64,000 nucleotides of DNA from Patescibacteria group bacterium (lineage in GTDB: Bacteria > Patescibacteriota > Minisyncoccia > Phycocordibacterales > UBA1006), in NCBI GenBank assembly GCA_028286885.1, contig JAQBQS010000016.1, forward strand, positions 70,464-134,463, written 5' to 3'. Shown here piece after piece: positions 18,245-57,415 of this stretch. Numbering within the stretch: position 1 is the stretch's first letter; every line of letters begins with the position of its first letter. The translations under genes were made by a program, and so were the position numbers. The notes beneath the pieces were generated by a model. That model had not been told where the DNA came from. It ran no database searches and was given only the letters and a program-made list of their open reading frames with translations.

Positions 18245-18375
18245 GCTTACATGTCTGAATTGCAGGCATTTTTCTTTCCCTGAGATATTTCCGCAGGTGC
18301 CATCTCGGCAGCCACGCGAATACCGCAGGAAAAGACTCTACCACCAATGTGTTTGACGGAGCGAAACCGTCATCT

Positions 18376-18996
18376 ATGTCCAATAAATTCACATTCTATC
18401 GTCAGATGGCGCTTGGGTACACCCTCATCGTCGGTCTGTGCATCGGATTAATAACCCCGATCGCGCAAGCAGAGGCTCCAACTGACACGTTATATGCAGC
18501 GTCCCCTACGTCAACCGTTGTCGATGGGCTTACCCAGGAACAGCGAGCGGCTAAAATCGACGCATTCTTCACATTACGCGACAATTCACCGCTTGCAGGC
18601 GAAGGCCTGACATTCGTGAAGGCCGCGGACACATACGGTATCGACTGGAAGCTTCTTCCTGCGATTGCGACCATCGAGTCCAACGGAGGAAAAATGCTCT
18701 GTTCGAACCCGAAAGGTGCGAACAACCCCTTCGGTTTCGGCTCATGTAAGGTCCCTTTCAAGGACTTTGACGAGGCGATCGATACGGTTGCCAAGAACCT
18801 TGGCGGATATAATCCGGCAACGGAAGTCCATTACAAGGACAAGTCCGTAAGCGAGATTCTCGAAGCTTACAACCCTTCGTCAATCCGCCCCGACTACCAG
18901 AAATTGGTCGGATGGGCGATGAAGAAGATCGCTTCGACCGATGCCTCAGTGCTTGTGGCTACCGTCTCAACTTCTTCGCAGCTTGCGATCAAGTAA
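18376..18996 (+). CDS. secreted peptidoglycan-hydrolase-like protein (glucosaminidase / lytic transglycosylase-like)
   Basis: Signal/TM, then GIDWKLLPAIATIESNGG motif. Confidence 0.45.
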   Translation: MSNKFTFYRQMALGYTLIVGLCIGLITPIAQAEAPTDTLYAASPTSTVVDGLTQEQRAAKIDAFFTLRDNSPLAGEGLTFVKAADTYGIDWKLLPAIATIESNGGKMLCSNPKGANNPFGFGSCKVPFKDFDEAIDTVAKNLGGYNPATEVHYKDKSVSEILEAYNPSSIRPDYQKLVGWAMKKIASTDASVLVATVSTSSQLAIK

Positions 18997-20571: not shown

Positions 20572-23500
20572 ATGAATGCTCTTTCTCGATTAACAAAAAC
20601 GAAATATTTCTTTGCAGGAATGATCGTTGCTGCGATCGCAGGGTATTCGCTGTTAGTCTATGCTGCCGCGCCATCCGGAGGATATGCGCCGGGAGCGACG
20701 CTGAACCCAGACTGCGGACCGAATGATACGGACTGCGCAGTTAATTTGCCCACGGGGGGGGGGGTGGCAGCTTTCAGGCAATAGCGGGACAAGTTCAGCG
20801 AGTGATTTTTTAGGAACAACGGATAATCAGCCTCTTGTATTTAAAGCCAATAGCTCCGAAGCGATGCGCATTCTTGCCAACGGAAATATCGGAATAGGAA
20901 CACCGACGCCGACGGCTTCATTGTTTATTCAAAAAAAGCCGGGAACGGTTCCGTTTGTCGTACATGATTCTGATTCCAATCCGAGCCACATCCTCTTTGG
21001 AGTTTCGGAAAACGGAGACCTTTCAAGCAAGGGAGATGCGCAGATCGGCGGCAACGCATTTGCAAATGGCGTAGGCATCGGCATTTTTTCCTCGCTTCAA
21101 GCGCGGCTGCACATCGTTGCCGAGCAAACGACGTCAGGCGGAAGCCCTTCGTCCATCAGCTCTACGACCTACCATGGCGGAGGCGGCGAACTTGCCGATG
21201 CGACTGTCGGCGGAAACTATACAGGAACCACGGACTGTACGCTTGCTGTGGGCATTGCCGACACGGCTCCTGGAAATGGGCATACAAACGACACCTTCGA
21301 ATTCGGACCCGTCTCGGGAAGTTGCACGGGTATCAGCGGCGGATCGCCGGTGGAAATTACGCCCGGAGTTCCGCAGGCAATCGGGAGCAGCGGAGTTACC
21401 GTCACTTTTGCGTCGGGAACGGGACACACGCCGCTCGACATGTCGTCCGGTATCGACCATTACTATTCTGCCGACATTACGGCCGGCACGGCAGGAACTG
21501 TTATCCCCGGCGCTGATCCTTTTCTCATCAGCAATAGCGCGAGCGATACGCTTTTCAAGGTTGCAAACGACGGCACGATTACGATCGCGGGACTCGACTA
21601 TGTTTTTCCGACAAGTCCTTCAACTTCATACGGCGATGTCCTGACCAATGACGGATCGGGAAATTTGTCATGGGCTCCTGCGAGCGGAGGAGGCGGAATC
21701 GGAAGCCAAACCTGTTCCACGGGCCAGTTTGTTACGGGATGGAACGGTTCGAATTTTACGTGCGACACTCCGTCGGGCGGAGGCGGTGGTTCTTCGCTTG
21801 TGGGGCTGACTGACTCTAACAGTACATGGCTTGGCGTCGGAGCGGGAGACAATGCTGCGACAGACTTGACTACGTTCATTGGTCTAAATGCTGGTAGTGG
21901 TGCAACAGATGCCGTAGGTTCGACCTTCATCGGAAGGGTTGCAGGATCTAATTCCGCAAATGCGGCGCATGCTATCTTTATTGGTGATGCAGCCGGTTAC
22001 AACGACAGTGTTAGTAATGGATTATCGGACAGTTCGATTCTGATCGGTAATTCGACTTCGACAGGAGGCTTCTCAAATTCGATTGCTATCGGCAAGGAAG
22101 CCGCGAACACAGCTGCGAACCAGTTCCTCATTTCAGATAGCATTTCAAAATTTGCATTTCCAGGTTCCAAGGCGTTCGGGATAGGTACCAATTCCCCCAC
22201 GGCGGCGCTCGATGTCGTCTTGCCGAATCCTTATTACACGTATCATCAGCGATTTACCGGCGCAGGAGGCACCGGAAATCCTAATAATGACGCAACGTTT
22301 TCAGGAACATATACAGGATCTCATCCCGATGACGTTTTCACAGTAACAATCGATTCAACAGGTTCTCCAGATACGTTTTCGTGGTCTGATAGCCGAGGTG
22401 ATGGATCAGGATCCAATGTCTCTATCACAGGCGGATCTCAAACGCTCATTGATGGGATCAGTGTTCAATGGGGCAGTACGACCGGTCACACGATGGGAGG
22501 AGGCTCTTCGGGAACCACGGAACTTACCGTCGGAAATTCGCCAGCCTTTCAGATTCGCGGCGCTTCCGGTTCGCCATACTTTGCCGTGAACTCGGTTGTT
22601 AAGGGCAGTACGTTTATCGGCGAAGAGGCGGGAATCGGTGCGACAAGCGCAACAGATTCCTTCTTCACCGGATACCAGGCAGGAAACGGCGCGACCAATG
22701 CCTCTCTTTCAATCTTTACCGGTAACTCATCAGGACTTGGCGCTACCGATGCCTTCAATTCGATCTTCGTAGGTGTTGAAGCGGGTTATCAGGCAACGAA
22801 CGCGAGCGGTGCAAACTTCATCGGCGATGGTGCAGGATTCACTGCCGCGCATGCTGCCAATTCGAATTTCATCGGCAAGAATGCCGGATTCGATTCTGCA
22901 TATGCTACAAATTCGACCTTTATCGGACGTCAAGCAGGATATCAGGTTGCGACGAGCAGCAGTTACGATTGTGTCGCGGATGTCATGAATCCTTGTTTCA
23001 GCAGTCTCATGATAGGAGATGGTGCAGGATATAACGCTACCGATGCGCACAACTCGCTCTTTATCGGAAACGGAGCCGGTTATTTAGCAAACGCGGCAAA
23101 TAATTCACTGTTCTTGGGAAATGCGGCAGGCAGCAGCGCGACAAGCGCCAAGTATTCTACATTCGTAGGAGAAGGCGCAGGATCAAATGGAACCTATGCA
23201 ACAGCTTCGGTATTTATTGGAAGTGGGGCCGGGTATCTCACAGCGCAGGATAGCGCTTACGGTACCGATTACTTTTACGGCACTTATATCGGTTACAATG
23301 CGGGATACGGGGCGACGGATTCGCACGAGTCGAACTTCATAGGAAAGCTCGCCGGGTATAATGCTGCCAATGCGATCAATTCGAACTTTATCGGTTCGGA
23401 GACGGGTAAGGAATCAAATGCGGATAATGCGAACTTCATCGGTACGGCCGCAGGCTGGCTTGCAACGAATGCAAATAACTCAACCTTCCTCGGAGCAAGT

Positions 23501-24586
23501 ACGGGGTTCCGGGCCAGTAATTCAAGCGATTCATTCTTTGTTGGTACGAATGCCGGAGCTTATGATAACAATCTCACAGGTACGCAAAATGCCGCCCATT
23601 CAATCTTCATCGGTACAAATGCCGGATATACGACCGCAGACCACGCTTTGGATAACACCCAAGACCCAGATGACTATTCGATCCTGCTTGGAAACAATAC
23701 CTCGACAGGAGGATTCAAGAACTCGATTGCGCTTGGCGGGAACGCCACAAACACCGCATCAAACCAGTTCATGATCGGTTCGACGGCTCGTCCGATCAAC
23801 TCGATTGTGATGAACAGTACATCTCAGACCGGATGTACGATCGTTGCAAGCGGAATCTCGTGTTCGTCTGACCAGAGACTCAAGACAAACATTGCAGACT
23901 TGCCAACAAACGCACTTGATACGCTGACGAAGGTTCGAACGGTTACATACAATTGGATCAACCCGGCGGCAGGCCAGGATCAGAATCTTGGATTTATCGC
24001 TCAAGACTTGCAGCAGTACTATCCTCAGCTTGTTTCAGTAGGCGCAGGCGGATACCTCCAGGTAAACTACGCCGGAATTACTCCTGTCTTGGTGCAATCG
24101 ATCCGAGAACTCAACTTGAAACTTGTCGACATCCAAAAAGTCGCCGATGCGACGGATAAGACATTCTTGAACAATCTGATCGCATGGTTTGCATCATCGG
24201 CAAACGGAATAGGAGATTTGTTTGCAGGCTCGATTCATGCCAAGGATACCGTTTGCATCCAGGATGTCTGCGTGACGAAGCAAGATCTTCAGAATTTGAT
24301 AAACGCGCGAGGGCAGTCTGTCATCCAGCCCGTGCCTCCGGTGACGGTAACGACCTCATCCGGCAATGAATCTGCAACCGATTCATCGGCGCCTGTACAA
24401 GAAGACCCATCGGAAACCGTTTCCGACACGGTAAATTCAGATTCAACAAGTTCAGAACCCGTTATCGATCCGATAGTCTCATCGGACGCTTCGGGAACTG
24501 TTACAACCGACACGACTGGTACGGGTCCGTCAAGCGATACGTCAACACTGCCAGCATCATCGGATGCATCTCCGGCCATTGAATAA
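20572..24586 (+). CDS. giant secreted beta-solenoid fibre protein 1 with C-terminal tail-fibre-type intramolecular chaperone/autoprotease domain; reading frame interrupted at a poly-G tract
   Basis: Signal peptide, then VYAAAPSGGYAPGATLNPDC (frame 1). After the G11 tract the protein continues in the +1 frame for 1287 codons. It has 17-aa SxFIGxxAGxxA repeats and ends CSSDQRLKTNIADLPTNALDTLTKVRTVTYNWIN...LGFIAQDLQQYYPQLV...ITPVLVQSIRELNLKL (S74-like). Confidence 0.7.
20754..20764 (+). repeat. G11 homopolymer causing a frameshift (possible slipped-strand phase switch or assembly error)
   Basis: cac-ggggggggggg-tgg. G10 or G13 would fuse the signal-peptide ORF to the 1287-aa ORF. Confidence 0.8.
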
Positions 24587-24587
24587 T

Positions 24588-24613
24588 AAAAAAGCCAACG
24601 GGGCTTTTTTATT
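24588..24613 (+). terminator. weak terminator after fibre gene 1
   Basis: aaagcc-aacgg-ggcttttttatttg. Confidence 0.4.
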
Positions 24614-24640
24614 TGAAAAAACAAGGTTTCAAGGTATACT
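24613..24640 (+). promoter_or_regulatory. sigma70-like promoter of fibre gene 2
   Basis: TTGAAA-16 nt-TATACT. Confidence 0.5.
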
Positions 24641-24663
24641 GTGCTGAGCAATTTCCTCAACGC

Positions 24664-27600
24664 ATGAATTTTTTCTCATTCAAAAATAAATATGCACTCA
24701 CGACGCTCGCGATTCTCGCGCTTGTTTCATATTCGTTCATCGTTTACGCCGCCGCGCCATCGGGCGGATACGCTCCGGGCGCAACGCTCAACCCTGACTG
24801 TGCGCCGGGGAGCAGTGTTGATTGTGTTGTAACTCTTCCCACAGGTTCCGGACTTATCGGTTCGACGAGCGGCGTGACAAGTTCGCCGACTCCTTCGGGA
24901 ACCCGTTTTGAAACATGGCTTGGACAGAGGGCTGGTTTGAATGCGACCACTGATCACAATGACCACACGGTCCTCATTGGGGTAGATGCAGGAAATGGTA
25001 CGAACTACGATTTCTATTCCAATTTTATCGGAGCAGAGGCAGGAATGAATACGAGTAGTGACAATCATTCGAACTATATCGGCTATCAGGCTGGTAAGAA
25101 TACTTCAAATTCTTATTATGCGAACTTCATAGGGTATGGCGCGGGTGATGGATCAAACGATGCCATAGGATCGGTTTTTATTGGTGCTGTTGCAGGTAAA
25201 AACGCCAGCGGTTCGGCTTCTTCTACGTTCGTCGGAAATGGCGCGGGCATCAATGCTCAAAATTCGATAAGCTCGGTATTTCTCGGGGATGCTGCGGGGT
25301 ATGGCGCTTCCGATGCGTCCCTTTCGGTATTTATTGGAAGCCAGGCAGGCATAACCTTTTCAGGCGGCAAGAAGGCCCATGCAATTTTCATCGGCGCTAC
25401 TTCTGGATTCAATGATCAAGTTGATAACGTCACGACTCCGGGCACTTCGATTTTGATCGGAGAGGGCACTTTAACGGGCGGCCATTCCAATTCCATAGGT
25501 CTTGGTACCAATGCAGTAAACACCATGTCCAATCAGTTTCTGGTTGCATCATCATATGTCAATTGGCAGATTGCCGGTGTTGATTATGTTTGGCCGACAT
25601 CACAGGCAGCAGGAGCGGGATATGTGCTTACCAACGATAGTGCTGGTAATTTGTCATGGGCGCCGGCGGGATCAGGTAGTGGAACGGTATATGACGACAA
25701 GCAGATTGTGTTCGGCGACGGTTCTACTGCAGGCGGCGTGACAAGTCCGAACTTTCTTTGGAACAATTCGAGTTCGCGCTTCGTAACGGCGGGAGCTTCA
25801 GGCGCCGAGCCTGTCATTGACGCTGACTACCACAGCGGATTACCGATTGTCACGATAGGAGCGAACGGATATGGAAATGAAACTAATCTCTTTCTTTCGG
25901 ATAACCACGGGACGGCCCGCCTCGGTTCCTCGCTCCTTCAATCTCAATTATCCATAACAGGAGACATGGGGCTTGCCCAGCTCGGTGATGGATTTGGAAT
26001 GGGAAACAATACTCTGCTCACCGTCAATGACGGTTCGCAATTCATCACTCTTGCCGCATCAACAGGGACCCTGATCCAGGATAATGTCGGAAACACTTGG
26101 TTGAACGTGAATCCGTCCGGATCAACAGTATCACTTGGAAATCTCGGCGCTCCTTCGGGAACGACATTTACAATAGACGATGTTGGCGAGAGTTATACAT
26201 TTTCAAAACCAAACTTCGCCATCAATGGAGTTAATTACATTTGGACTGGGAGCCAGGCAACAAGCTACGGCGATGTTTTGACGAACGACGGATCAGGAAA
26301 TCTGTTTTGGGCGCAGCCTCCGGGTGGTGGTGGAATAGCATCTCAAACATGTTCAGTTGGCGACTTTGTAACTGGTTTCGACGGAACCAACTTCAATTGT
26401 GGTGCGGGAGGTTGGTCATTAACCGGCAATGCCGGAACGGATGGAGGAACGACAAATTTCATCGGTACGACCGATGCGCAGGATTTCGTCATCAAGACGG
26501 ACAGTTTAGAAGTCGCTCATTTCTACAATGACACGTCGGCTAATTCTTACAGCATTTCACTTGGACAGGAAAGTATAGCCACGGACGCTGGAATGTTCGT
26601 AGCGGGAGGGGGTGCAGGAACCAACTCAAGCACTTCGGCCAATTCGATATGGATGGGAAACAGCACAGGTTACAATACCGACGGGGCTACCAGTTCAATC
26701 TTTATCGGTGATACCGCAGGTCAATATGCTGACAGTGCGAACGATTCGGTATTTATGGGAACCGCGGCCGGAAACAACGCGTCCAGTTCGTTTACTTCCA
26801 ACTTCATCGGCTACAATGCCGGGAACGGAGCCGCATCATCTGAAGATTCGAACTTCATCGGTACTCATGCCGGAGATGCTGCGTCAGGTTCGCATCGTTC
26901 CAACTTTATTGGAGCCTATGCAGGTCAGAACTCGACGGGTTCAGGCGAGTCAAACTTCATCGGATACTATGCCGGTTATGGTGTCACAGGCGCGTTTGAT
27001 TCCAACTTTATCGGAGGGAGTGCAGGATACGGAGCCGATCAGGCCAACCAATCCAACTTCATCGGTCCGAACGCAGGATATAACGCGACAAATGCTAACC
27101 AGTCCAACTTCATAGGAGGACAGGCGGGGCAGGATGCGCAGTATGCGTCTTTCTCATCTTTCATGGGATACCAGGCCGGTTATGGTGCAACTTATGCAGC
27201 AGATTCAGTCTTCCTCGGAAGAAATGCCGGGCAGGATGCGGCGGCTGCATCTAATTCAATCTTCGTCGGAAAGCATGCGGGACAGAGCGCGTCGAATGCC
27301 TCCAATTCAATTTTCATCGGATATAATTCGGGAAGCGGAGATTCCGTTGACAACACCTTCGGAGACTCGTCGATTTTAATCGGTAACGGTTCCTTAACCG
27401 GAGGGTTTTCAAACTCGATCGCACTCGGAACGAATGCGACCAATACTGCGGTCAACCAGTTCCTTATCGCGCCGTCATATGTAAATTGGCAGATTGCCGG
27501 AGTGGATTATGTTTGGCCAAACGCTCAGGCGGGAGGTCCTGGATATGTTTTGACGAATGATGGTTCTGGAACATTGACATGGTCCACAGGTGGGGGGCTC

Positions 27601-28905
27601 ATTGGTTCTACGAGTGGAATTACCAATTCTCCAGTTGCGGGTGTTACAGAAGAGACATGGCTTGGTGCTGGCGCAGGATCAAGTGGAGCAGAGATGGAAA
27701 ATACGGTGTTTATTGGAGTAAATGCAGGATCAGGTGCGGCGGGAAGAAGAGGTATCATCATAGGTAGAGATGCAGGAGTTAACAGTGTCGGCGGCAGCAA
27801 TGTATTTATTGGAAACACGGCAGGCAATAACGCCGTCGCAGGAGGGGCTACGTTTATTGGTGATGGTGCAGGATTGAATTCAACCCTCTCAAGCGGATCA
27901 ATCTTCATGGGTCGACTAGCAGGTAGCGCAACAACAAATGCTACAGGATCAATTTTCATCGGACAGCAGGCAGGAGAAGGAGATACGGTAGACAACCTTA
28001 CCGTTCCGGGAACTTCGATTTTGATCGGAAACGATACCAGAACGGGCGGTTATTCGAACTCGATTGCCCTTGGAAAAAGCGCAATCAACAGCGCGACTAA
28101 TCAGTTTATGGTCGGCTCCTCGTCAAGCCCGATCGATCAATTCGTCATGGTAGGAAGCGGCGGGGCAACCTGTTCGCTCGACGCCAATGGAACGTCATGT
28201 TCATCGGATGAACGGTTGAAGACAAACATTAGCGACCTTACAACAAACGCGCTTGATACGTTAACAAAAGTTCGAACGGTTACGTTCAATTGGATAAATG
28301 GTGCTGACTCAAATCAGCATCTCGGATTCATTGCTCAGGATATACAGCAGTTCTACCCGCAACTTGTTTCAACAGCTTCAAACGGATACCTGACAGTAAA
28401 CTATGCGGGCATTACGCCAGTATTAGTAGAATCGATCCGCGAGCTTAACTTGAAACTGATCGATATTCAAAACTTTGCGGCAGCGACTGACAAGACGTTC
28501 TTGAATACGCTGATCGCATGGCTTGGAAATGGGGCGAATGGAATTACGGATCTGTTCGCGAAGAACATTCACTCGGATTCAGTGACGACCGCGCAGCTAT
28601 GCGTAGGATCGACATGCATCAGCGAGACAGACCTTCAAAAGTTTAAGACATGGGAAGCGTCCCAGCCACAGACACCTCAGGTTTCTCCATCAGGAGGAGG
28701 ATCTTCAGATCCAGCTCCAAGCGGTGACAGTCCTGCGCCGTCTGACAATGCTGATACGTTGACACCTGATGCAAGTCAGGACGGCGCTCCGGTTGTAGAT
28801 GCTCCGGCAGACTCGTCGTCTTCGGATCCTGTTGCGCCAAGCGCTCCGCAAGACAGCGGTGCGCCAGCGCCTGCACCGAGCGACGCTCCGGCAGTCGCGC
28901 AGTAA
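24664..28905 (+). CDS. giant secreted beta-solenoid fibre protein 2 (about 1413 aa) with C-terminal tail-fibre-type intramolecular chaperone/autoprotease domain
   Basis: Paralog of fibre 1 with the same N-terminal FIVYAAAPSGGYAPGATLNPDC. More than 10 tandem 17-aa SNFIGxxAGxxA repeats. C-terminus CSSDERLKTNISDLTTNALDTLTKVRTVTFNWIN...LGFIAQDIQQFYPQLV plus a Pro/Ser/Asp-rich tail. Confidence 0.75.
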   Translation: MNFFSFKNKYALTTLAILALVSYSFIVYAAAPSGGYAPGATLNPDCAPGSSVDCVVTLPTGSGLIGSTSGVTSSPTPSGTRFETWLGQRAGLNATTDHNDHTVLIGVDAGNGTNYDFYSNFIGAEAGMNTSSDNHSNYIGYQAGKNTSNSYYANFIGYGAGDGSNDAIGSVFIGAVAGKNASGSASSTFVGNGAGINAQNSISSVFLGDAAGYGASDASLSVFIGSQAGITFSGGKKAHAIFIGATSGFNDQVDNVTTPGTSILIGEGTLTGGHSNSIGLGTNAVNTMSNQFLVASSYVNWQIAGVDYVWPTSQAAGAGYVLTNDSAGNLSWAPAGSGSGTVYDDKQIVFGDGSTAGGVTSPNFLWNNSSSRFVTAGASGAEPVIDADYHSGLPIVTIGANGYGNETNLFLSDNHGTARLGSSLLQSQLSITGDMGLAQLGDGFGMGNNTLLTVNDGSQFITLAASTGTLIQDNVGNTWLNVNPSGSTVSLGNLGAPSGTTFTIDDVGESYTFSKPNFAINGVNYIWTGSQATSYGDVLTNDGSGNLFWAQPPGGGGIASQTCSVGDFVTGFDGTNFNCGAGGWSLTGNAGTDGGTTNFIGTTDAQDFVIKTDSLEVAHFYNDTSANSYSISLGQESIATDAGMFVAGGGAGTNSSTSANSIWMGNSTGYNTDGATSSIFIGDTAGQYADSANDSVFMGTAAGNNASSSFTSNFIGYNAGNGAASSEDSNFIGTHAGDAASGSHRSNFIGAYAGQNSTGSGESNFIGYYAGYGVTGAFDSNFIGGSAGYGADQANQSNFIGPNAGYNATNANQSNFIGGQAGQDAQYASFSSFMGYQAGYGATYAADSVFLGRNAGQDAAAASNSIFVGKHAGQSASNASNSIFIGYNSGSGDSVDNTFGDSSILIGNGSLTGGFSNSIALGTNATNTAVNQFLIAPSYVNWQIAGVDYVWPNAQAGGPGYVLTNDGSGTLTWSTGGGLIGSTSGITNSPVAGVTEETWLGAGAGSSGAEMENTVFIGVNAGSGAAGRRGIIIGRDAGVNSVGGSNVFIGNTAGNNAVAGGATFIGDGAGLNSTLSSGSIFMGRLAGSATTNATGSIFIGQQAGEGDTVDNLTVPGTSILIGNDTRTGGYSNSIALGKSAINSATNQFMVGSSSSPIDQFVMVGSGGATCSLDANGTSCSSDERLKTNISDLTTNALDTLTKVRTVTFNWINGADSNQHLGFIAQDIQQFYPQLVSTASNGYLTVNYAGITPVLVESIRELNLKLIDIQNFAAATDKTFLNTLIAWLGNGANGITDLFAKNIHSDSVTTAQLCVGSTCISETDLQKFKTWEASQPQTPQVSPSGGGSSDPAPSGDSPAPSDNADTLTPDASQDGAPVVDAPADSSSSDPVAPSAPQDSGAPAPAPSDAPAVAQ

Positions 28906-28928
28906 AAATTCCCGAAAGGGAGTTTTTA
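28906..28928. terminator. short GNRA-loop hairpin terminator between convergent genes
   Basis: ttccc-gaaa-gggag-ttttt, with the complementary T-run on the other strand. Confidence 0.4.
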
Positions 28929-29372
28929 TATTGCAAATAAAAAATCCCCTCGGTCGAGAAGGGATCTTGAAATAGTTGTCTGTCTCACGACGCGGACGAT
29001 GCACTTGGCTCCGTTGAGGATCATGACGGCATATCCTACTTGGTATTTTTCGTTCTGACTCGGCAGATAGCGCGCATTGATGAGGGGTTCCTCCATGATC
29101 GCTTTTATTAAATGCGAATCAGGGCTTGAAATTTCAAAAAAAGCGTGCATTGTTTCGGTCTTGGTGCTTTCTCTGTATCGCCCGACCATAATCGGCTTGA
29201 TGACATAGAGCGGCCGGAACGATCCGACTTGCAGCGAATCAAAGCGGCCCTTAGCGGTTATGTGCATGATATCGTCATCGATCCGGATGGAGTCCATCAG
29301 TTTCGGGTAATCTTGCGCATGCATGCAATTCGAAGTTCCAAAGAATAAAAGGGCAAGGAGCAGTTTTCTCAT
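28926..29372 (-). CDS. secreted hypothetical protein (148 aa)
   Basis: N-terminal signal peptide MRKLLLALLFFGTSNCMHA. Confidence 0.45.
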   Translation of the reverse strand: MRKLLLALLFFGTSNCMHAQDYPKLMDSIRIDDDIMHITAKGRFDSLQVGSFRPLYVIKPIMVGRYRESTKTETMHAFFEISSPDSHLIKAIMEEPLINARYLPSQNEKYQVGYAVMILNGAKCIVRVVRQTTISRSLLDRGDFLFAI

Positions 29373-30798: not shown

Positions 30799-31359
30799 TT
30801 ATTTATTCCTCTTCATCATCTCCATCTCATCTTGGTATTCTTGCACCTCCTCATCCGTCATGTGGCGGATGTCTTTCGCGTGGTCGACGAACAGGATTCC
30901 GTCCAAGTGGTCGATTTCGTGCTGGAAGATTTGCGACAAGAGTCCGGTGCCGGACATCGTAAACGTCTTGCCATCCTCGCCGACCGCACGGACAGTCACG
31001 GACTTGTTCCGTTTCGTTGTTCCATAGATCCAGCGGACGGACAAACAGCCTTCGCCTTTCGCCCAGAATGTTTCCTTGGACCGTTTCGTAATTTCAGGAT
31101 TGATGAAAATCTTGTCGGGCGTCGGCGTACCCGTGATATTTTTTTTCTTCAAGTCAAAGACGAATCCCGCCACGATGAACATGCGCACGGGTTCGGCGAT
31201 TTGGGGCGCGGCGATCGCAACGCCGTCGGGTTCGCGGTGCAAAGCCGTTTTCATGTCCGAAATCACCTTGCGGATGGCGCTCTTGGTAATCTCGGCAACG
31301 GGAATTTCATGCGCCTTGCCGCGAAGTATGAGGTTTGGTTCCTGGACGATCGTGCACAT
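30799..31359 (-). CDS. def: peptide deformylase
   Basis: GVAIAAPQI, EGCLSV and QHEIDHLDG motifs. Confidence 0.85.
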   Translation of the reverse strand: MCTIVQEPNLILRGKAHEIPVAEITKSAIRKVISDMKTALHREPDGVAIAAPQIAEPVRMFIVAGFVFDLKKKNITGTPTPDKIFINPEITKRSKETFWAKGEGCLSVRWIYGTTKRNKSVTVRAVGEDGKTFTMSGTGLLSQIFQHEIDHLDGILFVDHAKDIRHMTDEEVQEYQDEMEMMKRNK

Positions 31360-31408
31360 ATGCGAAAATACTGTAGCAAAAAATTGCCGAACTTGCTACG
31401 ATGGTTGC

Positions 31409-32017
31409 ATGCAAGAAACCTCACCTAAAAATTCATCGACCGCGTCGCGCGTTTGGTCGGAAATCTGGGACATTATCAAATTTTTGGCGCCGATCATTAT
31501 CGTCGTCTTCTTGATCCGTACCTACGTTGCGCAGCCGTTCATCGTCGACGGGGAATCGATGGCGCCGAACTTCCATACGGGGCATTACCTGATCATCGAC
31601 GAGATTTCGTACCATTTCCATCAGCCTGCACGCGGAGATGTTGTCGTCATGCGCTATCCGCTCGATACGTCGCGATTCTTCATCAAGCGAATCATCGGAC
31701 TGCCTGGCGATACGGTCTTGATCAAGGACGGCCATGTCGTCATTACGAATCCTGCGAATCCGAAGGGATATGTTCTGACCGAACCGTATGAAACGCAGGC
31801 GACGTTTCCAGCCGGCAACTACAATAACGTAACGCTGAAAGACGGCGAGTATTTCGCCCTCGGCGATAACCGCGGCGGATCATCGGATTCGAGAACGTGG
31901 GGCATCCTTCCGAAGAAGGACATCATCGGACATGTCATCTTGCGATTGTTCCCGATCAGCTCTGCGGGAATCGAACCGGCGAGCTTGAAGTCGTTTGAAA
32001 AGCCTGCGACTAACTAA
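31409..32017 (+). CDS. lepB: signal peptidase I
   Basis: GESMAPNF (catalytic Ser box), GDNRGGSSDSRTWG, and an N-terminal TM segment. The track start at 31076 overlaps def, so the in-frame ATG 31409 was used. Confidence 0.8.
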   Translation: MQETSPKNSSTASRVWSEIWDIIKFLAPIIIVVFLIRTYVAQPFIVDGESMAPNFHTGHYLIIDEISYHFHQPARGDVVVMRYPLDTSRFFIKRIIGLPGDTVLIKDGHVVITNPANPKGYVLTEPYETQATFPAGNYNNVTLKDGEYFALGDNRGGSSDSRTWGILPKKDIIGHVILRLFPISSAGIEPASLKSFEKPATN

Positions 32018-38732: not shown

Positions 38733-39161
38733 ATGGATCAAACCCTTTCGCAAACGAATCGCATTACTCCCGCACCGAGGACGGTAGATCCGTCGGGACA
38801 CGACCACATCCACCGACGTCACATGATCGTCTGGACGCTCCTCATCATTCTTGCATTGATCGTTATCGGCATCGTTACCTTGAAGCTGTATCACAAGCAA
38901 AGAGAAGCAGAATTCCAGAACTCTTATTCCCAAGCTCAGATAGAAAACCAGAAGAAATTTATCCAGCAGGTTGCCAATACTCCGGATTCCAAGCCGATGA
39001 CGGCTGCGGAACAAAAAGCGTATTTTGATTCGGTGAAGGCCGCCGATGCGTCTCAGAGTTCACAGGCACAAGCTGACCAATCAGCATATCTCGAGCAAGT
39101 AGCTGCTCGCGACCGAGCCGTCGAAGCCGGAGCGCGCGCCGATTATGACAAAACTCATTAA
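38733..39161 (+). CDS. membrane-anchored coiled-coil protein (143 aa)
   Basis: TM helix MIVWTLLIILALIVIGIVTL, then a Gln/Ala-rich region. Preferred over the antisense ORF 38604-39014. Confidence 0.45.
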   Translation: MDQTLSQTNRITPAPRTVDPSGHDHIHRRHMIVWTLLIILALIVIGIVTLKLYHKQREAEFQNSYSQAQIENQKKFIQQVANTPDSKPMTAAEQKAYFDSVKAADASQSSQAQADQSAYLEQVAARDRAVEAGARADYDKTH

Positions 39162-39165
39162 TCCT

Positions 39166-40695
39166 ATGAAAAAACACTTTTCGACTTTCAAATACGTAGG
39201 AGTTCTTGCCATCGTTGCGCTTGCGCTCGGACTTGGCATCCATAAGATCAACGCTTCGACTGCAACAGTTACGGTAACTGGCATCAGCGGATTCGGATGG
39301 TCGGATATGCCCGATACGTCGAACGAGTGTTTGCATGGAATTCCTCCTAATAACACATCGTGCGGCTCATACGTTTCTGATCATACAAGCGGCCAGGTAG
39401 GCCGCGGCGCAGGATGGATCAGCATGAACGGCTCGGCAGGAACATCTTCCGGCATGGGCGGAAACGTCTCGATCAATTCAACGACGGGCGAACTCCACGG
39501 ATACGCATGGACGCCGAACATGGGTTGGATCAGATTTGATCCGACAGGCCCGTATCCGGTACAGCCGACAGTAGGAATCGGCAACGCTCCGAACGGAAGC
39601 GTGCCAGGGGGCCCGGTAGGACCCCAGACAGGCGGCAACGGATCTCAGACAGTTCCGGCGAATACAGGAATTCCAGGCAGCGGCCTCCTTGAAAATATTA
39701 TCGAAAAGATTTTGGGCAATCAGAAAGCCTATGCAACGGCCATTTCGAGCAAAATTAACCTGACCAGCGGAACATGGGAAGGCTGGGCTCGGGCTTGTGC
39801 CGTCTTCCAGTCAGGTTGCGACGGAGCACTTGCTACGAGCGACGTAACGGGCGGATGGGACGGATGGATTTCGCTTTCTGGAGACACTTCAAGCATTTGG
39901 CAGATCAACCATCATTACGGCGTCGTCAGCAACATGACAACCGGCGCAACAACAGGTTGGGCATGGGGAGGCGATATCATGGGATGGATTAACTTTGACA
40001 ATGTAAGGCTTCTGATCGCTCCTCTTACATGCGTCGGAACTGACGGCAATACATATACCTATGCTCAAGGAACGACGCCTCCGCCTATCTGCAGCGCATT
40101 GTTATGTTCAGATCCGTTAGCGAACAACGTCGGAAGCGCGCTTCCTTGTACCTACGACGGCCAACTGTGTACCGATCCGTTAGCGAACAACGTCGGAAGC
40201 GCGACTCCTTGTACCTATGGCATCTGTGCCAACCCTCTTGCTACGAACTACGGACAGTCAGGCGCATGTATCCTGCCTATTGTTACAGGCCTTAACGGTG
40301 CGTCAGCGACGATCAGTCAGACAAACGACTGTTCAACAGGCACCGCAGTCATCACATGGTCTACAATCGGGGTTTCTCCCATGTGTCAGGCATCGACAAG
40401 CGGAACGTCAGGTATTACGGGATTCTCGGGGCCGGTCCAGCCAAGCGGTTCGGCGACGGTCCACGGCATCCAGCAGAACGGACAGGCGAACAACTTTACC
40501 ATCACGTGCCCGAATCTGCTGCCCGGATACATCCATCGCGGACCGGTGACAGGAACAACCCAGGTAACATGTCAGATTCCAAACGTGTGTACCGATCCGG
40601 CGGCGAACAACGTTGGAAGTCCGCTTCCATGTACTTATGGTCCAGGAGGGCCTGGAAGCACGGGAACGCCACATCCTATTTACAAAGAAAATTAA
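39166..40695 (+). CDS. secreted repeat protein with GWxW...MGWIxFD motifs and four CxDPxANNxGSxxPCTY repeats
   Basis: Signal peptide; GYAWTPNMGWIRFD and GWAWGGDIMGWINFD motifs; Cys-pair repeats. Confidence 0.55.
   Translation: MKKHFSTFKYVGVLAIVALALGLGIHKINASTATVTVTGISGFGWSDMPDTSNECLHGIPPNNTSCGSYVSDHTSGQVGRGAGWISMNGSAGTSSGMGGNVSINSTTGELHGYAWTPNMGWIRFDPTGPYPVQPTVGIGNAPNGSVPGGPVGPQTGGNGSQTVPANTGIPGSGLLENIIEKILGNQKAYATAISSKINLTSGTWEGWARACAVFQSGCDGALATSDVTGGWDGWISLSGDTSSIWQINHHYGVVSNMTTGATTGWAWGGDIMGWINFDNVRLLIAPLTCVGTDGNTYTYAQGTTPPPICSALLCSDPLANNVGSALPCTYDGQLCTDPLANNVGSATPCTYGICANPLATNYGQSGACILPIVTGLNGASATISQTNDCSTGTAVITWSTIGVSPMCQASTSGTSGITGFSGPVQPSGSATVHGIQQNGQANNFTITCPNLLPGYIHRGPVTGTTQVTCQIPNVCTDPAANNVGSPLPCTYGPGGPGSTGTPHPIYKEN
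40104..40223 (+). repeat. near-perfect tandem duplication (about 60 bp x 2) inside the secreted protein gene
   Basis: gatccgttagcgaacaacgtcggaagcgcgc/actccttgtacctA... occurs twice in a row. Confidence 0.75.
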
Positions 40696-40707
40696 TTATC
40701 AACTTTC

Positions 40708-41943
40708 ATGAAATCTTTCAAAACAATTTCAGTGGCCGTACTTGCAGCCCTCGCGCTTCTTGTCTCGGTTCACTTCGCCCATGCCGCATGGACGGTTCCG
40801 ACCGGAGTTCCCCCGACAGGCAATGTTACGGCGCCTGTTAACGTAGGCGCGACAGGCCAGGTCAAGACAGGGCCGTTCACAGTCCTTAATCTCTTCATGG
40901 CCAAGCAGGGAATCTTCGGCCCGCAGATTGCGAGCGTTTCGAGCACGACGAATATTTTCAGCGCCATGTCGGCAGTTCTCGGAGGACACGGCATCTGGAT
41001 CGACCAGGCCGGAAATCCTACCGTGCAGGGTACCCAGCTTAATATCAACTTGACCCAAAATAGCGCTGGCGCAGGACGAAATGCCATTGATATCGAAGTA
41101 AGCCCGGACAACACGGCAGTTGATAAGCACGCTGCATTTACGACGAACGCCCCGGGATTCCACTTCTGGAGCAATGCGACGGCATCGAGCGGAGGCATTC
41201 TTGCCGGATACATTACTCTTAACAGAGGATGTCAGGCCAACGGAGGTGTCGACTGTACGGGCAAGATCTTGACATCGGACGCAAATGGAAACGCATCATG
41301 GGAGGATGCTTCGGCGATCGCTCCACTCCCAACGCTTACTGGAGGTACGATGGATATCAAAATTGTTCGTGCAATAAATAATGCTTCAGGTTATCGAGCA
41401 TTCGCATCATGCGCGGCTGGAACCCAATCAAGCGATACAAGTGGTGAGAATATTCCATCATCAGGAGGTTATACCCTCGTTGGTGGTGGCGGCGATTGTG
41501 CTGATAGTACAATGCTCATCTCTCAGCCGAATGCAGGAAATATTCATAATGAATGGCAGGTAAGCTGCGTAGGACATCTTGGAGTTGATGTACATTCAAC
41601 AGCGGTCTGTATGAAATATGTAGCTCCGACTCTCGCAGCTCCGACAGCGCCTGTTGTTACGACGCAGTGGTCAGCTCCATCGGGATACTCTCCTAATACC
41701 GGCAACGGAAGCTACGGTTACGGATGTTCGTTCTTCGGAACACATTCATATGGAGTTCGCCAGCATAATTCCTCGGGTGATCAGTTCATCCAGAACTCAT
41801 GTCTCTACCGAATCCGCCCGGGAACCCAAGGAACCCAGCAGTGTCAGTACGGATCGGTTACGAATACGAATGCTAACCTCCAGCCGGTTTCAAGCTGTAC
41901 TGAATCGTCATCATCGACAACCTACACGCTTTACCGCAATTAA
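40708..41943 (+). CDS. secreted Cys-rich hypothetical protein (411 aa)
   Basis: Signal peptide MKSFKTISVAVLAALALLVSVHFAHA; multiple Cys in the C-terminal half. Confidence 0.5.
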   Translation: MKSFKTISVAVLAALALLVSVHFAHAAWTVPTGVPPTGNVTAPVNVGATGQVKTGPFTVLNLFMAKQGIFGPQIASVSSTTNIFSAMSAVLGGHGIWIDQAGNPTVQGTQLNINLTQNSAGAGRNAIDIEVSPDNTAVDKHAAFTTNAPGFHFWSNATASSGGILAGYITLNRGCQANGGVDCTGKILTSDANGNASWEDASAIAPLPTLTGGTMDIKIVRAINNASGYRAFASCAAGTQSSDTSGENIPSSGGYTLVGGGGDCADSTMLISQPNAGNIHNEWQVSCVGHLGVDVHSTAVCMKYVAPTLAAPTAPVVTTQWSAPSGYSPNTGNGSYGYGCSFFGTHSYGVRQHNSSGDQFIQNSCLYRIRPGTQGTQQCQYGSVTNTNANLQPVSSCTESSSSTTYTLYRN

Positions 41944-42090: not shown

Positions 42091-42699
42091 ATGAGAAAAT
42101 TTTTCACGTTTATTTTTGCAGCCGTCCTCGCATTGGGAGCTGCCGCGCAAACCGCGCCGTCTTTTGATCAAGGCAATGGCTTCAGCTATGATCCTTACCC
42201 GGATCACGTCGTAATCCATTACAACTACGATTCGGCGACGGTACTGCCGGTCTACATGACCTTTTCTCTTACTACACCTGTAGGAGATACGGCCGTTGTC
42301 GATTCGTATTTCGTAGATAATACGAGGCATGCCGACCATGTCGTCTACATCACGCCTGCGCCTGCGCCCTATACGATCTACAAGGTTTACTTCTTTATGA
42401 CCAATGACTCCGGCTCTAGTACCGGATTCAGCAATGTGAGAACCGCCGGTCCAAACGGCATAACGCCAATTGATACAAAAGCCGTGCGCATCGTAACAGA
42501 ACAAAAAGCATGTACGATTACTGCAGACGAGTCTTACCAAGGATCGCAAGTTTCGCTTTATTCGATCATCGGCCAGAAGGTTGCATCAGAAAAAATAGAG
42601 ATGGGACAATGTATCGTTCATGCGCAGACAGCAGGAATCTACATTCTTGCGATTGACCGTAACGGTACTATTGAAACAAAAAAAATACTGATCGAGTAG
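42091..42699 (+). CDS. secreted protein with a Por/T9SS-like C-terminal beta-sandwich tail
   Basis: Signal peptide; C-terminal VSLYSIIGQKVASEKIEMGQCIVHAQTAGIYILAIDRNGTIETKKILIE resembles a type-A sorting domain. Confidence 0.5.
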   Translation: MRKFFTFIFAAVLALGAAAQTAPSFDQGNGFSYDPYPDHVVIHYNYDSATVLPVYMTFSLTTPVGDTAVVDSYFVDNTRHADHVVYITPAPAPYTIYKVYFFMTNDSGSSTGFSNVRTAGPNGITPIDTKAVRIVTEQKACTITADESYQGSQVSLYSIIGQKVASEKIEMGQCIVHAQTAGIYILAIDRNGTIETKKILIE

Positions 42700-55116: not shown

Positions 55117-55614
55117 ATGTTAGACATAAAAAACGAATTCACTGAATTAATTTCAGGAAGCGAGGAAATAATCATCGACGAGTGTAGGGGTTCTGATATA
55201 CTCGAGAATACGGAAGGCCTTTTTCACATCAACGAAGAAAGCTTCCGCAAGTTCAAACTGAAGCTTGCAGACGAAATCAGTCCGAACATTCCTACGGATA
55301 AAATATCTGCCGAAGTTTATCAAAGAAAAAAAGACGCAACGCTTCTGCAAATGTTCGGCTCGTTCGGTACGGATATCAGCACTCTTTGCATGAGCTGGAA
55401 ACAGATAAAAATATTCTGCAAGAAGCATCCAATGTGGCTCTGCGGCGGGGGATTCGGAACTCTTTTTATAACCAAAATCAATGGCGAGTATGCGGTTGCA
55501 TCGCTCAACCTCGTGCCTTCCATAGGGCTGCGCATGTCCGCTTTCCCGCTAGAAGAAAAGTATGTTTTTTCCTGGGGATTCCAGCATTTGGTTGTTCCTA
55601 GGTTGTCTTCTTGA
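55117..55614 (+). CDS. paralog 1 of a novel ~160 aa family (165 aa)
   Basis: Shares EEIIIDEC.GS at the N-terminus, LC..Q.QI..FCEK.P in the middle, LFLFK, and a C-terminal PRLSS/PKLSS with the next three genes. Confidence 0.7.
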   Translation: MLDIKNEFTELISGSEEIIIDECRGSDILENTEGLFHINEESFRKFKLKLADEISPNIPTDKISAEVYQRKKDATLLQMFGSFGTDISTLCMSWKQIKIFCKKHPMWLCGGGFGTLFITKINGEYAVASLNLVPSIGLRMSAFPLEEKYVFSWGFQHLVVPRLSS

Positions 55615-55648
55615 AAAACTAAATCTCGTCCGTAAGGCGAGATTATTC

Positions 55649-55677
55649 TTGACTAAAATTCTTTTAAGATGTATATA
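55649..55677 (+). promoter_or_regulatory. promoter of paralog 2
   Basis: TTGACT-17 nt-TATATA. Confidence 0.55.
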
Positions 55678-55716
55678 GATTTGGAAATTAACATTGCAAA
55701 AATTAAATAAACCAAG

Positions 55717-56199
55717 ATGACAGCTGCTGAAAATTTATTTGAACTCATTTCTCTGGATAAGGAGATCGTCATCGATGCATGCGACGGTTCGCAAACCTTG
55801 GCAGACGCCACAACCTTATTCGTCGCAACCGATTCGGTCGTCAAAAAATGCAGGTTCAACAAGATCAGGCCAACCGGACCGACTTCCGTTGACATTTACA
55901 AAATACCTGAGAAGGGTTCGCTTGCGGGCGCTTCGATCATAGATTATTTTGAAAATGATCTGGACAAATTGTGTCTGACCCAAAACCAGATAAGGAGCTT
56001 CTGTGAGAAGAGCGCCGCGAAGTGGATAAAGGGAGATAAATTCGAGTTTTTCTTCCTGTTTAAGATAGGCGGGCGAATACACGCCGCCCATGTTGCCACG
56101 TATACTTCTGGCCTAAGGGTCTTTGCCTACAGCATGGATTTCGTAATTGCCTGGTTCGACCGTGGCAACCGGGGTTTGGTAGTTCCCAAACTACTTTAA
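55717..56199 (+). CDS. paralog 2 (160 aa)
   Basis: EIVIDACDGSQ...LCLTQNQIRSFCEK...FFFLFK...VVPKLL. Confidence 0.7.
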   Translation: MTAAENLFELISLDKEIVIDACDGSQTLADATTLFVATDSVVKKCRFNKIRPTGPTSVDIYKIPEKGSLAGASIIDYFENDLDKLCLTQNQIRSFCEKSAAKWIKGDKFEFFFLFKIGGRIHAAHVATYTSGLRVFAYSMDFVIAWFDRGNRGLVVPKLL

Positions 56200-56208
56200 A
56201 ATCTATTC

Positions 56209-56238
56209 AAAGCCCTGATCCACAATCAGGGCTTTTTC
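56209..56238 (+). terminator. terminator of paralog 2
   Basis: agccctga-tccacaa-tcagggct followed by TTTTT. Confidence 0.7.
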
Positions 56239-56239
56239 A

Positions 56240-56268
56240 TTGACAAGAATGCTTTTGCGTGATATACA
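56240..56268 (+). promoter_or_regulatory. promoter of paralog 3
   Basis: TTGACA-17 nt-TATACA (TGaTATACA extended -10). Confidence 0.55.
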
Positions 56269-56309
56269 GTTATTGAAATAACAATTGTAAAATTTAAAAT
56301 ATAACCAAG

Positions 56310-56807
56310 ATGACAGACATAATAATCCGAGAGTCCATGGTACGTCTTTCAGAAGACAAGAAACTTATCATCGACGCATGTAGCGGAGAAAGGACTTTTG
56401 CAAGTTCGCCTACTCTTTTCGGGTCACATGGAGCGGGATGGCCATTTAATGAAATGGATTATCCAAGCGCTCCTACTCCTGAAATCGAAATCGAGCGATA
56501 TCAGATGATAAAGCCAGATTGTGTAACGGATATATTCAAATCTTTTAGTTCCGATCTGGAAAAGTTATGCCTCAATCAGGATCAAATAATCACATTCTGC
56601 GAAAAGCATCCCGAAGAAATTTCCAGAGAGTCTTCAATGACGACATTTTTCCTCTTTAAAAGAAAAGAGAACGTCATGGTCGGGGTAATGTTTGGGGATG
56701 GAGCCATGGATAACCGCCATTATGTTGTTGAGGGCCAGGATCTGCCTACTGGGGTACATAGTATTAAATATTTCCGCTCAATACTTATCCCTAAACTGTC
56801 TTCTTGA
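56310..56807 (+). CDS. paralog 3 (165 aa)
   Basis: KLIIDACSGER...LCLNQDQIITFCEKHP...FFLFK...IPKLSS. Confidence 0.7.
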   Translation: MTDIIIRESMVRLSEDKKLIIDACSGERTFASSPTLFGSHGAGWPFNEMDYPSAPTPEIEIERYQMIKPDCVTDIFKSFSSDLEKLCLNQDQIITFCEKHPEEISRESSMTTFFLFKRKENVMVGVMFGDGAMDNRHYVVEGQDLPTGVHSIKYFRSILIPKLSS

Positions 56808-56817
56808 AAAACATTCA

Positions 56818-56848
56818 AAGGCCCGATCTTATAGATCGGGCCTTTTTC
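56818..56848 (+). terminator. terminator of paralog 3
   Basis: gcccgatc-ttata-gatcgggc followed by TTTTT. Confidence 0.7.
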
Positions 56849-56877
56849 TTGACTAAAATATTTTTCTATTATATACA
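56849..56877 (+). promoter_or_regulatory. promoter of paralog 4
   Basis: TTGACT-17 nt-TATACA. Confidence 0.55.
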
Positions 56878-56917
56878 GATGGAGAAATAACTATTAAAAT
56901 ATAAATATATAACCAAG

Positions 56918-57415
56918 ATGGCAGCTGCAACAAACGAATTCCTGAAACTCATTTCAGGTGAACAAGAAATTATCATCGACGCATGTGATGGCACGAGAAG
57001 CATTGCGGACTCGGAAGAAATATTTACCAGGTTCCTAGATCCAAGTTTCAAAGATGCTTTTTTTGACAAAACCGGCAAAGAAACAAAAGAAATTTCATTG
57101 GAAATCAGCGAAATAACTAAAATGTCGACCTTACAGAAGATATTCCATTCGTTGGAGATTGATCCAGAAAACTTACGTCTTACTCAGCATCAGATAATCA
57201 ATTTTTGTGAGAAGTATCCTGATAAGTTTTTAATCAATGGAAAACCTACATTATTTCTTTTCAAAATGGGCAGTTCCGTGTGTGTAGCTAGTATCGCCCG
57301 GGATTCTTGTGGATTAAGGATTTATAGAAATGACCTTTATGGCGGCAATGTCGGTCCTGGACGTTATAATGTGATGCCTTCTTGGCGAATCGCAATTCCC
57401 AAACTGTCTTCTTGA
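56918..57415 (+). CDS. paralog 4 (165 aa)
   Basis: EIIIDACDGTR...LRLTQHQIINFCEKYP...LFLFK...IPKLSS. Confidence 0.7.
   Translation: MAAATNEFLKLISGEQEIIIDACDGTRSIADSEEIFTRFLDPSFKDAFFDKTGKETKEISLEISEITKMSTLQKIFHSLEIDPENLRLTQHQIINFCEKYPDKFLINGKPTLFLFKMGSSVCVASIARDSCGLRIYRNDLYGGNVGPGRYNVMPSWRIAIPKLSS

Follow-up and report, generated by a model that had tools for sequence, protein, structure and literature searches.

The window analysed here is a stretch of 64,000 nucleotides (64 kb) of contig JAQBQS010000016.1 from a Patescibacteria metagenome-assembled genome (MAG; GCA_028286885.1). It carries two neighbouring paralogous genes on the same strand, at 20572-24586 (gene 1) and 24664-28905 (gene 2), whose products combine a signal peptide, long arrays of a short repeat and a C-terminal chaperone domain, and which we regard as candidate surface fibres. 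In the list of open reading frames (ORFs), read directly, the pair is flanked by a cyclophilin gene on one side and a small convergent ORF on the other. The two proteins are about 33% identical end to end, which bears out the adjacent paralogs described in an earlier note on this DNA. That note gave their sizes as about 1370 and 1413 amino acids (aa). The second figure stands and the first does not: gene 1 is frameshifted, and its product has 1337 aa after the removal of one G. The 5' segment of gene 1 is closed after 70 codons by an out-of-frame TAG (20782-20784), just past a run of 11 G (G11) at which the body of the gene takes up another frame. This body encodes non-repeat N-terminal modules, a collar motif, 17-residue arrays, two cap motifs, the S74 chaperone module and an acidic Ser/Thr/Pro tail. 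With one G fewer, gene 1 encodes a single 1337-aa protein (hereafter the repaired gene 1) that aligns from end to end with gene 2 at 33% identity. The public annotation has a shortened product of 1240 aa that lacks the signal peptide, and the Logan assembly of SRR13312974 has the 5' segment called as a 70-aa gene of its own. Recent gene conversion between the two genes was considered and rejected: the DNA blocks they share are only 70-74% identical, and none is near-identical. If the promoter match upstream of gene 2 is real (Table 1), this gene would be expressed independently of gene 1.

Both proteins open with a hydrophobic signal-like segment, followed by VYAAAPSGGYAPGATLNPDC. The mean hydropathy of the h-region is about 2.0 and, together with inspection of the sequences, agrees with the signal peptide and conserved segment previously read in both. 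All cysteines of the two proteins lie in close pairs, as expected of extracytoplasmic proteins. The gene of signal peptidase I (lepB; Peptidase_S26, E = 1.4e-43), the enzyme expected to remove the signal peptides of the fibres, lies 2.5 kb downstream of them at 31076-32017 on the + strand; its real start codon probably lies some distance into the ORF as listed.

The shafts are built of a repeat with the consensus (N/S)-S-x-F-I-G-x-x-A-G-x-x-A-x-x-A-x, whose spacing is nearly always 17 residues. Gene 1 has about 23 such units and gene 2 about 29, the latter in three arrays. The autocorrelation at a lag of 17 residues is 0.35-0.50, against 0.10 in shuffled sequences (z = 11-20 in three of the arrays; z = 4 in the fourth, which is short), and together with the spacing it confirms the 17-residue periodicity noticed before. 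The DNA of the repeats has a 51-nt period with only 60-78% identity between units, and the repeats are therefore old. An AlphaFold2 monomer model of residues 640-985 of gene 2, made with 15 homologous segments, has a predicted local distance difference test score (pLDDT) of 90-98 over the array and a predicted template modelling score (pTM) of 0.78. The model places one short strand in every 17 residues, i.e., it predicts a single-chain beta-solenoid with one coil per repeat, as anticipated in the earlier proposal of a beta-helical or solenoid shaft. Each array closes with a cap resembling the head of YadA, SILIGNxTxTGGxSNSIALGxxAxNTxxNQF, and most caps are followed by the collar motif IAGVDYxxP...VLTNDGSGNLSW (a module that can also be written IAGVDY...LTNDGSGNLSW). 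A sequence search of the PDB with the shaft returned noise only (E > 0.5).

The C-terminal module is the best-defined part of the proteins. In a Pfam scan at E <= 0.1, PF13884 (Peptidase_S74) was the single family matched in both, with E = 8.6e-16 (58.4 bits) in gene 1 and 3.4e-16 (59.7 bits) in gene 2, for a gathering cutoff of 22 bits; no NCBIfam model matches either protein. The S74 intramolecular chaperone domain that had been recognised by eye is thus found by profile search far over the cutoff, and the Ser-Lys motif and the fold agree with it. The catalytic motif S-D-x-x-x-K appears as SSDQRLK at residues 1098-1104 of the repaired gene 1 and as SSDERLK at residues 1180-1186 of gene 2. 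In an alignment of 26 family members its S, D and K never vary, and [ST]DxxxK occurs in 83 of 86 further members. Cleavage is predicted to release a fragment of 239 aa from the product of gene 1 and of 233 aa from that of gene 2. Sequence matches of the module in the PDB are phage tail fibres (8jov, E = 6.5e-6, and 6f45), and in PHROG the module matches tail-fibre, tailspike and receptor-binding families at their extreme C-termini, with matches that run to the end of the profile. An AlphaFold2 monomer model of residues 1140-1413 of gene 2 has a pLDDT of about 90 in the core, and a Foldseek search with it gave two significant structural matches in the PDB and no others: the ICA domain of MyRF (7dc3, probability 1.0, E = 6e-5) and the endosialidase chaperone (3gw6, probability 0.9-0.99). 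Because the model is that of a single chain and includes a disordered tail, the TM-scores reach only modest values (0.5 on the target).

The proteins do not end with this domain. The Pfam match is followed by 178 aa, comprising the remainder of the chaperone domain, a conserved helix, a conserved Cys-x4-Cys hairpin with a further helix (modelled at pLDDT 83-89) and a tail of about 70 aa, predicted to be disordered, which in the family is rich in Pro, Ser, Thr, Asp and Glu. The extra tail of about 50 aa reported earlier was therefore underestimated: the sequence after the match is about 178 aa long, and the low-complexity Pro/Ser/Asp tail makes up about 70 of them. Matches on 80 viral contigs end at the chaperone core, at about residue 140 of the module, and never reach the extension, whereas in genomes of the Candidate Phyla Radiation (CPR) the match continues through it. 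The coordinates of all these elements are collected in Table 1.

Table 1. Features of the two fibre genes, with positions counted from the first base of the window.
Feature	Position	Strand	Remarks
Gene 1, 5' segment, frame 1: signal peptide and conserved leader VYAAAPSGGYAPGATLNPDCGPNDTDC	20572..20784	+	Matches the N-terminal leader profile
G11 homopolymer at the frame junction of gene 1	20754..20764	+	Candidate slipped-strand switch or recent frameshift
Gene 1 body, frame 2: 1273 codons and stop, no further disruption	20765..24586	+	ORF from 20723
Gene 1 main array, about 20 units, repaired aa 681-1030	22613..23662	+	Lag-17 z = 15.7; 51-nt DNA period
Gene 1 Peptidase_S74 Pfam match	23867..24034	+	Starts at the predicted nucleophile Ser1099 (repaired aa), CSSDQRLK
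Sigma-70-like promoter match, TTGAAA-16-TATACT, 10/12	24613..24640	+	Weak; no commoner in the region than in shuffles
Gene 2, intact, 1413 aa	24664..28905	+	ORF listing; identical to JWM20_948 of the public MAG
Gene 2 signal peptide (aa 1-29) and leader Y-x-P-G-x-T-L-N-P-D-C-x-P-G-x-x-x-x-C, Cys46/Cys54	24664..24825	+	
Gene 2 array A, aa 104-258; then cap aa 262-292 and collar aa 303-332	24973..25437	+	
Gene 2 array B, aa 663-900, 14 units	26650..27363	+	z = 20.4; pLDDT 90-98
Gene 2 array C, aa 1016-1115, units of 16-17 residues	27709..28008	+	Then cap aa 1118-1148 and conserved Cys1170/Cys1179 tip
Gene 2 Peptidase_S74 Pfam match	28204..28368	+	Predicted nucleophile Ser1181, with Asp1182 and Lys1186, CSSDERLK
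Gene 2 chaperone remainder (long helix) and CPR-specific extension: helix, Cys1313-x4-Cys1318 hairpin, helix	28369..28689	+	
Gene 2 low-complexity Pro/Ser/Asp/Ala tail, aa 1343-1413	28690..28902	+	Predicted disordered

The two ends of the proteins define a large family. Of the first 83 homologues, 22 have the leader design, a signal peptide followed by Y-x-P-G-x-T-L-D-P-x-C-x-P-G-x-x-x-C. When 1.84 billion cluster representatives were searched with a profile of the leader, at least 1,596 of them matched at E <= 1e-3 and 456 at E <= 1e-10, and the match is N-terminal in the best 150 matches listed. Among the new leader matches of at least 500 aa (n = 95), 86 also carry the C-terminal module of S74 plus extension, but only 31 have four or more 17-mer units, so it is the two ends that characterise the family, with a shaft that varies. 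Scanning GTDB with a single genome for each species gave 321 confirmed loci. The titles of the best 80 of these are of the Patescibacteria lineage (Saccharibacteria-labelled, Nomurabacteria, Paceibacterota, Minisyncoccia) or of unclassified MAGs, and no other phylum is named in them. Many genomes contribute 2-5 loci each, tandem pairs or triplets being frequent: a Saccharibacteria-labelled MAG (L004, CAZVLM010000003.1, 2-6765) has three consecutive family genes on one strand, and tandem pairs occur in L009, L019, L038 and L043. Tandem amplification thus recurs in the family. In a collection of 5.8 billion proteins the closest relative of either fibre is at most 46% identical, while relatives of NusA reach 91%, a comparison that has to be read knowing that the contigs of most relatives are short; the contrast fits a fast turnover of the fibres. 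Some members are labelled by NCBI as 'tail fiber domain-containing protein', and PF26696 (PTL_trimer), for which we found no paper that mentions it, is listed for some homologues.

From these elements we propose that the two chromosomal genes probably belong to a large, CPR-specific family of secreted, self-processing and trimeric adhesion fibres. The working model borrows from the biology of S74 domains and from the mosaic adhesive trimeric (MAT) fibres of Bdellovibrio. The precursor would be exported by the Sec pathway through its N-terminal signal peptide, and signal peptidase I would probably cut after VYA, leaving at the new N-terminus the short conserved leader with its Cys loop, which would remain close to the cell and anchor the fibre to its envelope. 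Outside the membrane, the S74 domains of three chains would associate and template the trimerisation of the shaft from the C-terminus. The shaft would then consist of stacked single-chain coils of the 17-residue solenoid, interrupted by the YadA-head-like caps and the collar modules. The dyad Ser1181/Lys1186 (Ser1099/Lys1104 in the repaired gene 1) would finally cut the chain, releasing the fragment of 233-239 aa with the chaperone, the Cys hairpin and the disordered acidic tail, and exposing the mature distal tip. By analogy with phage and MAT fibres, the mature trimer would serve as an adhesin, most likely to another cell, either a host or a partner bacterium.

Several points weigh against this proposal. 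The structure models are monomers only, and in them the segments of the caps and collars have low confidence (pLDDT 45-62); such poor modelling of a monomer is expected of intertwined trimer segments but is no evidence for them. We infer trimerisation, cleavage and surface display by analogy, the signal cleavage between V-Y-A and A is predicted from inspection, and the proteins show neither an LPXTG motif nor a membrane anchor beyond the signal peptide nor any known domain for wall binding. The episymbiotic lifestyle of the source bacterium is likewise inferred. Moreover, a stretch of roughly 40 residues just ahead of the cleavage site is conserved in the family (26-sequence alignment), while it is usually the tip that varies in phage receptor-binding proteins and in MAT fibres. 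Recognition may therefore be specified along the shaft, or the fibres may not recognise a specific target at all.

This last point leads to a first alternative, in which the fibres are general structures of the envelope or matrix (a coat, a means of abiotic or biofilm attachment, a phage decoy or shield) with no specific cellular receptor. The conservation of the pre-cleavage segment and of both termini, so unlike hypervariable receptor-binding tips, speaks for it, as does the fact that episymbiosis is only putative for the source MAG. We nevertheless find it rather unlikely, since the composition of the shaft is highly variable and genomes hold several divergent copies, as is typical under diversifying pressure from a partner, since no close orthologue of either fibre was found although NusA has close relatives, and since the nearest described analogue works in cell-cell recognition. 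A different origin altogether, in which the pair is the stranded remnant of a tail-fibre module from a prophage, a tailocin or a contractile injection system, would account for the PHROG matches to tail-fibre families, for related chaperone cores on 411 viral contigs, and for the S74 module and repeat arrays shared with proteins that lack a signal peptide and have phage-fibre-like N-termini by eye (P0022, P0038, P0044). It is very improbable given the genomic context. Upstream of the pair lie genes for an ABC transporter, HPF and cyclophilin; downstream lie fmt, def, lepB, hisS (HisRS) and nusA; and farther in the window are TIM, PGK, RecJ, RNase H, ComEC and EF-Tu. None of the 40 other ORFs scanned with Pfam across the window matched a phage family, which upholds the description of the flanks as housekeeping and free of other phage genes. 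The two homologue loci whose surroundings were inspected (L001 and L002), both on other metagenome contigs, are also cellular: one lies between rpoB-rpoC-dnaG-rpoD and a glycosyltransferase gene, and the second, likewise amid genes of the cell, is followed about 8.5 kb downstream by a cluster for ribosomal proteins. Both proteins, in addition, open with a signal peptide and the CPR leader where a phage protein would have its virion-attachment domain, and the viral matches lack the extension after the chaperone. We therefore rejected the prophage reading on the Pfam scans and the homologue contexts; the earlier suggestion of host-encoded proteins holds in this window and in both homologue loci. 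The three proteins without signal peptide deserve mention in their own right: they are 1369-2433 aa long, carry 17-residue arrays and begin with the motif V(I/L)DP(I/L/V)YG(I/V)D(G/S)LR, which may be a phage-fibre N-terminus, and P0022 sits on a contig of 378 kb. Their shared arrays suggest an exchange of shaft modules between the fibres of CPR cells and those of phages, perhaps jumbo phages. Finally, the JGI name of one homologue would make these proteins YadA-type trimeric autotransporter adhesins. The cap motif weakly matches the Fusobacterium trimeric autotransporter adhesin CbpF (E = 0.066), and P0083, a distant match, carries a YadA_head repeat, but YadA_anchor and YadA_head have no Pfam match in either protein, and the C-terminus is an S74 module with a disordered tail instead of a beta-barrel anchor; we rejected this reading for the lack of anchor and head matches and consider it scarcely credible.

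The G11 tract of gene 1 has to be weighed separately. It is the sole G/C homopolymer of at least 8 bases in the window and occupies codons 61-64, and replacing it by G10 or G13 gives one open frame of 1337 or 1338 codons. Gene 1 therefore has the layout by which contingency loci are recognised, i.e., a homopolymer within an ORF at which a change of one base switches the frame, with an intact frame downstream. Its Gly run is coded entirely by GGG, whereas in the two homologues checked (L001, L002) the same run uses mixed codons. Over 9.7 kb, G11 included, the independent Logan assembly of SRR13312974 does not differ from this sequence, although it probably shares its reads with the public MAG. 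The 1273 open codons after the tract, with the conserved motifs and the catalytic S-D-K intact, imply that any inactivation of gene 1 is very recent. The position in a surface-protein gene, the uniqueness in the window, the all-GGG coding, the open downstream frame and the agreement of two assemblers all suit a slipped-strand contingency switch with gene 1 in the OFF state, a possibility that we put forward tentatively and with some doubt. These observations suit a very recent frameshift or an error in the homopolymer consensus as well, and ribosomal or transcriptional slippage at the tract is a further possibility. We give slightly better than even chances to the plainer explanation that gene 1 is an ordinary pseudogene, or that the length of the tract is a sequencing or consensus error, and that it has no regulatory meaning. 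Homopolymer indels are the most frequent errors, both spontaneous and technical, and the second assembly was probably built from the same reads. In addition, no G/C run of at least 8 bases occurs across 825 kb of 81 related loci, which led us to reject poly-G as a feature of the whole family and which also counts against the broader proposal. Disrupted copies of family genes do occur in MAGs at sites that are not simple repeats: in L036 (2276-6813) the gene is split where the frame shifts by about one base, in a place without a repeat (…LYWE* for the expected …LYWDNTNSRLG…), and in L048 (3716-6779) it is split by a run of N, a scaffold gap. Close orthologous loci in which tract lengths could be compared were not found, either by a cyclophilin-anchored scan of metagenome contigs (relatives at most 62% identical, with no fibre nearby), by a protein search with gene 1 (closest match 40% identical) or through the relatives of NusA, most of which lie on short contigs. 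The most far-reaching combination, in which the family provides the main host-recognition adhesins of Patescibacteria, variable shafts set the host range and gene 1, switched at G11, is the first contingency locus of the CPR, is in our view unlikely.

Other parts of the window also encode putative secreted or repeated proteins. About 1.6 kb upstream of the fibre pair, at 18349-18996 (+), a secreted ORF of 215 aa has a weak glucosaminidase match (E = 2.7e-4, below the Pfam cutoff) and might be a hydrolase of the cell wall, which would be of interest in an epibiont. Two adjacent Cys-rich ORFs of 516 and 411 aa (39145-41943, +) have signal peptides and no Pfam match, the larger with repeated units C(T/S)DPLANNVGS..PCTY; they are possibly further surface proteins. 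Two small ORFs, at 42091-42699 (+) and 28926-29372 (-), begin with signal peptides that look Bacteroidota-like by eye (MRKFFTFIFAAVLALGAAAQT, MRKLLLALLFFGTSNCMHAQ), and the first of them has a sub-threshold match to Por_Secre_tail of the type IX secretion system (20.7 bits for a cutoff of 27), which is odd for a Patescibacteria contig. Chance could explain this, as could horizontal acquisition from a host lineage or a problem with the binning. Just upstream of the EF-Tu gene, four tandem paralogous ORFs of 160-165 aa (55117-55614, 55717-56199, 56310-56807 and 56918-57415, spanning 55117-57415, +) share the motifs …E(I/L)IIDAC.G… and …LC(L/M)…Q(I/L)..FC(E/K)K… and a C-terminal (V/I)PKLSS/PKLL. 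The first of them, which was the one scanned, has no Pfam match.

How the ultra-small CPR bacteria find and attach to their hosts is largely unknown, type IV pili being, to our knowledge, the main structures implicated so far. The family described here is a candidate for this role: it is abundant, restricted to the lineage and present in multiple copies, with conserved ends and a variable shaft. Self-cleavage by the S74 Ser-Lys dyad can be tested in vitro, and the closest analogue, the MAT fibres, works in prey recognition. The conserved leader provides a sequence handle for cataloguing the fibres in metagenomes, with which host range might possibly be predicted. Were the poly-G tract to switch, CPR bacteria with minimal genomes would be using stochastic surface variation as pathogens do; were the proteins ordinary surface coats, some 1,600 clusters of 'hypothetical' proteins would still gain a useful annotation.

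The elements of the two genes can be compared with several known systems. YadA has a head repeat of 14 residues. The heads of trimeric autotransporters (YadA, UspA1, CbpF, BpaC) resemble the shafts in their short repeats rich in Gly, Ala, Asn and Ser (NSxAIG... compared with NSxFIGxxAG...), in their single-chain beta-rolls that pack as trimers, in the alternation of head and neck modules and in their adhesin function. The differences are that the repeat here has 17 residues and that trimerisation would be driven by a removable S74 chaperone, not by a membrane barrel. Patescibacteria (CPR bacteria), as far as we know, have no outer membrane, which sets them apart from Bdellovibrio and leaves no site for an autotransporter anchor. 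The ICA domain of MyRF (7DC3), the best structural match, is a cellular, non-viral use of S74 with a beta-helical stalk upstream. MyRF is however a eukaryotic membrane-bound transcription factor whose cleavage frees a DNA-binding trimer; it makes no secreted fibre, has no solenoid arrays and plays an unrelated biological role. Phage fibres and tailspikes (K1F endosialidase 3GW6, T5 pb1 4UW8, S16 gp37 6F45, and 8JOV) share the S74 fold, the Ser-Lys motif and the placement of the chaperone behind a beta-helical stalk, and for both groups one expects trimerisation followed by release of the chaperone. They differ in that the phage proteins start with a virion-attachment part, are encoded among tail-module genes and end at the chaperone, whereas the CPR fibres have a signal peptide, housekeeping neighbours and about 140 aa past the chaperone core.

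For the G11 tract, the natural comparison is with contingency loci, i.e., poly-G/C tracts in genes for surface proteins of Campylobacter, Neisseria and Haemophilus (PMC8355987, PMC5084427). The likeness lies in a G/C homopolymer of at least 9 bases in the 5' part of the ORF, a frame toggled by a change of one base and an intact ORF downstream. The case here differs in being a single one, known in one length only and not shared by other family members, and our literature search found no report of poly-G/C switching in Patescibacteria.

The closest described analogues of the fibres are the MAT fibres of Bdellovibrio bacteriovorus, more precisely their S74 subgroup, e.g., Bd3182. MAT fibres are located at the cell surface (Caulton et al. 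2024, PMC10769870), and Bd3182 cleaves itself at S782, which the S782A substitution abolishes (PMC10769870); the SDxxxK catalytic motif was defined for MATs and endosialidase in the same work (PMC10769870). The earlier note held that this combination was functionally undescribed in the lineage. This fits the open-access literature, in which we found no description of the family in CPR or Patescibacteria (absence there being no proof), but the concept is not new because the same design has been described, functionally and structurally, in MAT fibres (PMC10769870). The comparison concerns the described design of the proteins, not their sequences. Both sets are chromosomal, non-phage and multi-copy, the MATs coming from a bacterium that attaches to other bacteria; both have a signal peptide, a conserved N-terminal part, a long and variable beta-helical fibre and a C-terminal S74 domain with SDxxxK; and both reach lengths of about 1000 aa or more. 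The conserved N-terminal domain of MATs is however beta-rich and about 130 aa long, whereas the CPR fibres have a Cys-loop leader of about 25-30 aa and diverge directly after it. The CPR fibres further differ in their arrays of 17-residue single-chain solenoid with YadA-like caps, in the segment before the cleavage site, which is conserved instead of variable, and in the conserved helix, Cys hairpin and disordered acidic tail that follow the chaperone. What is new with respect to MAT fibres is thus a CPR-specific, cell-encoded family of S74 fibres with a leader, a solenoid repeat and a post-chaperone extension of its own.

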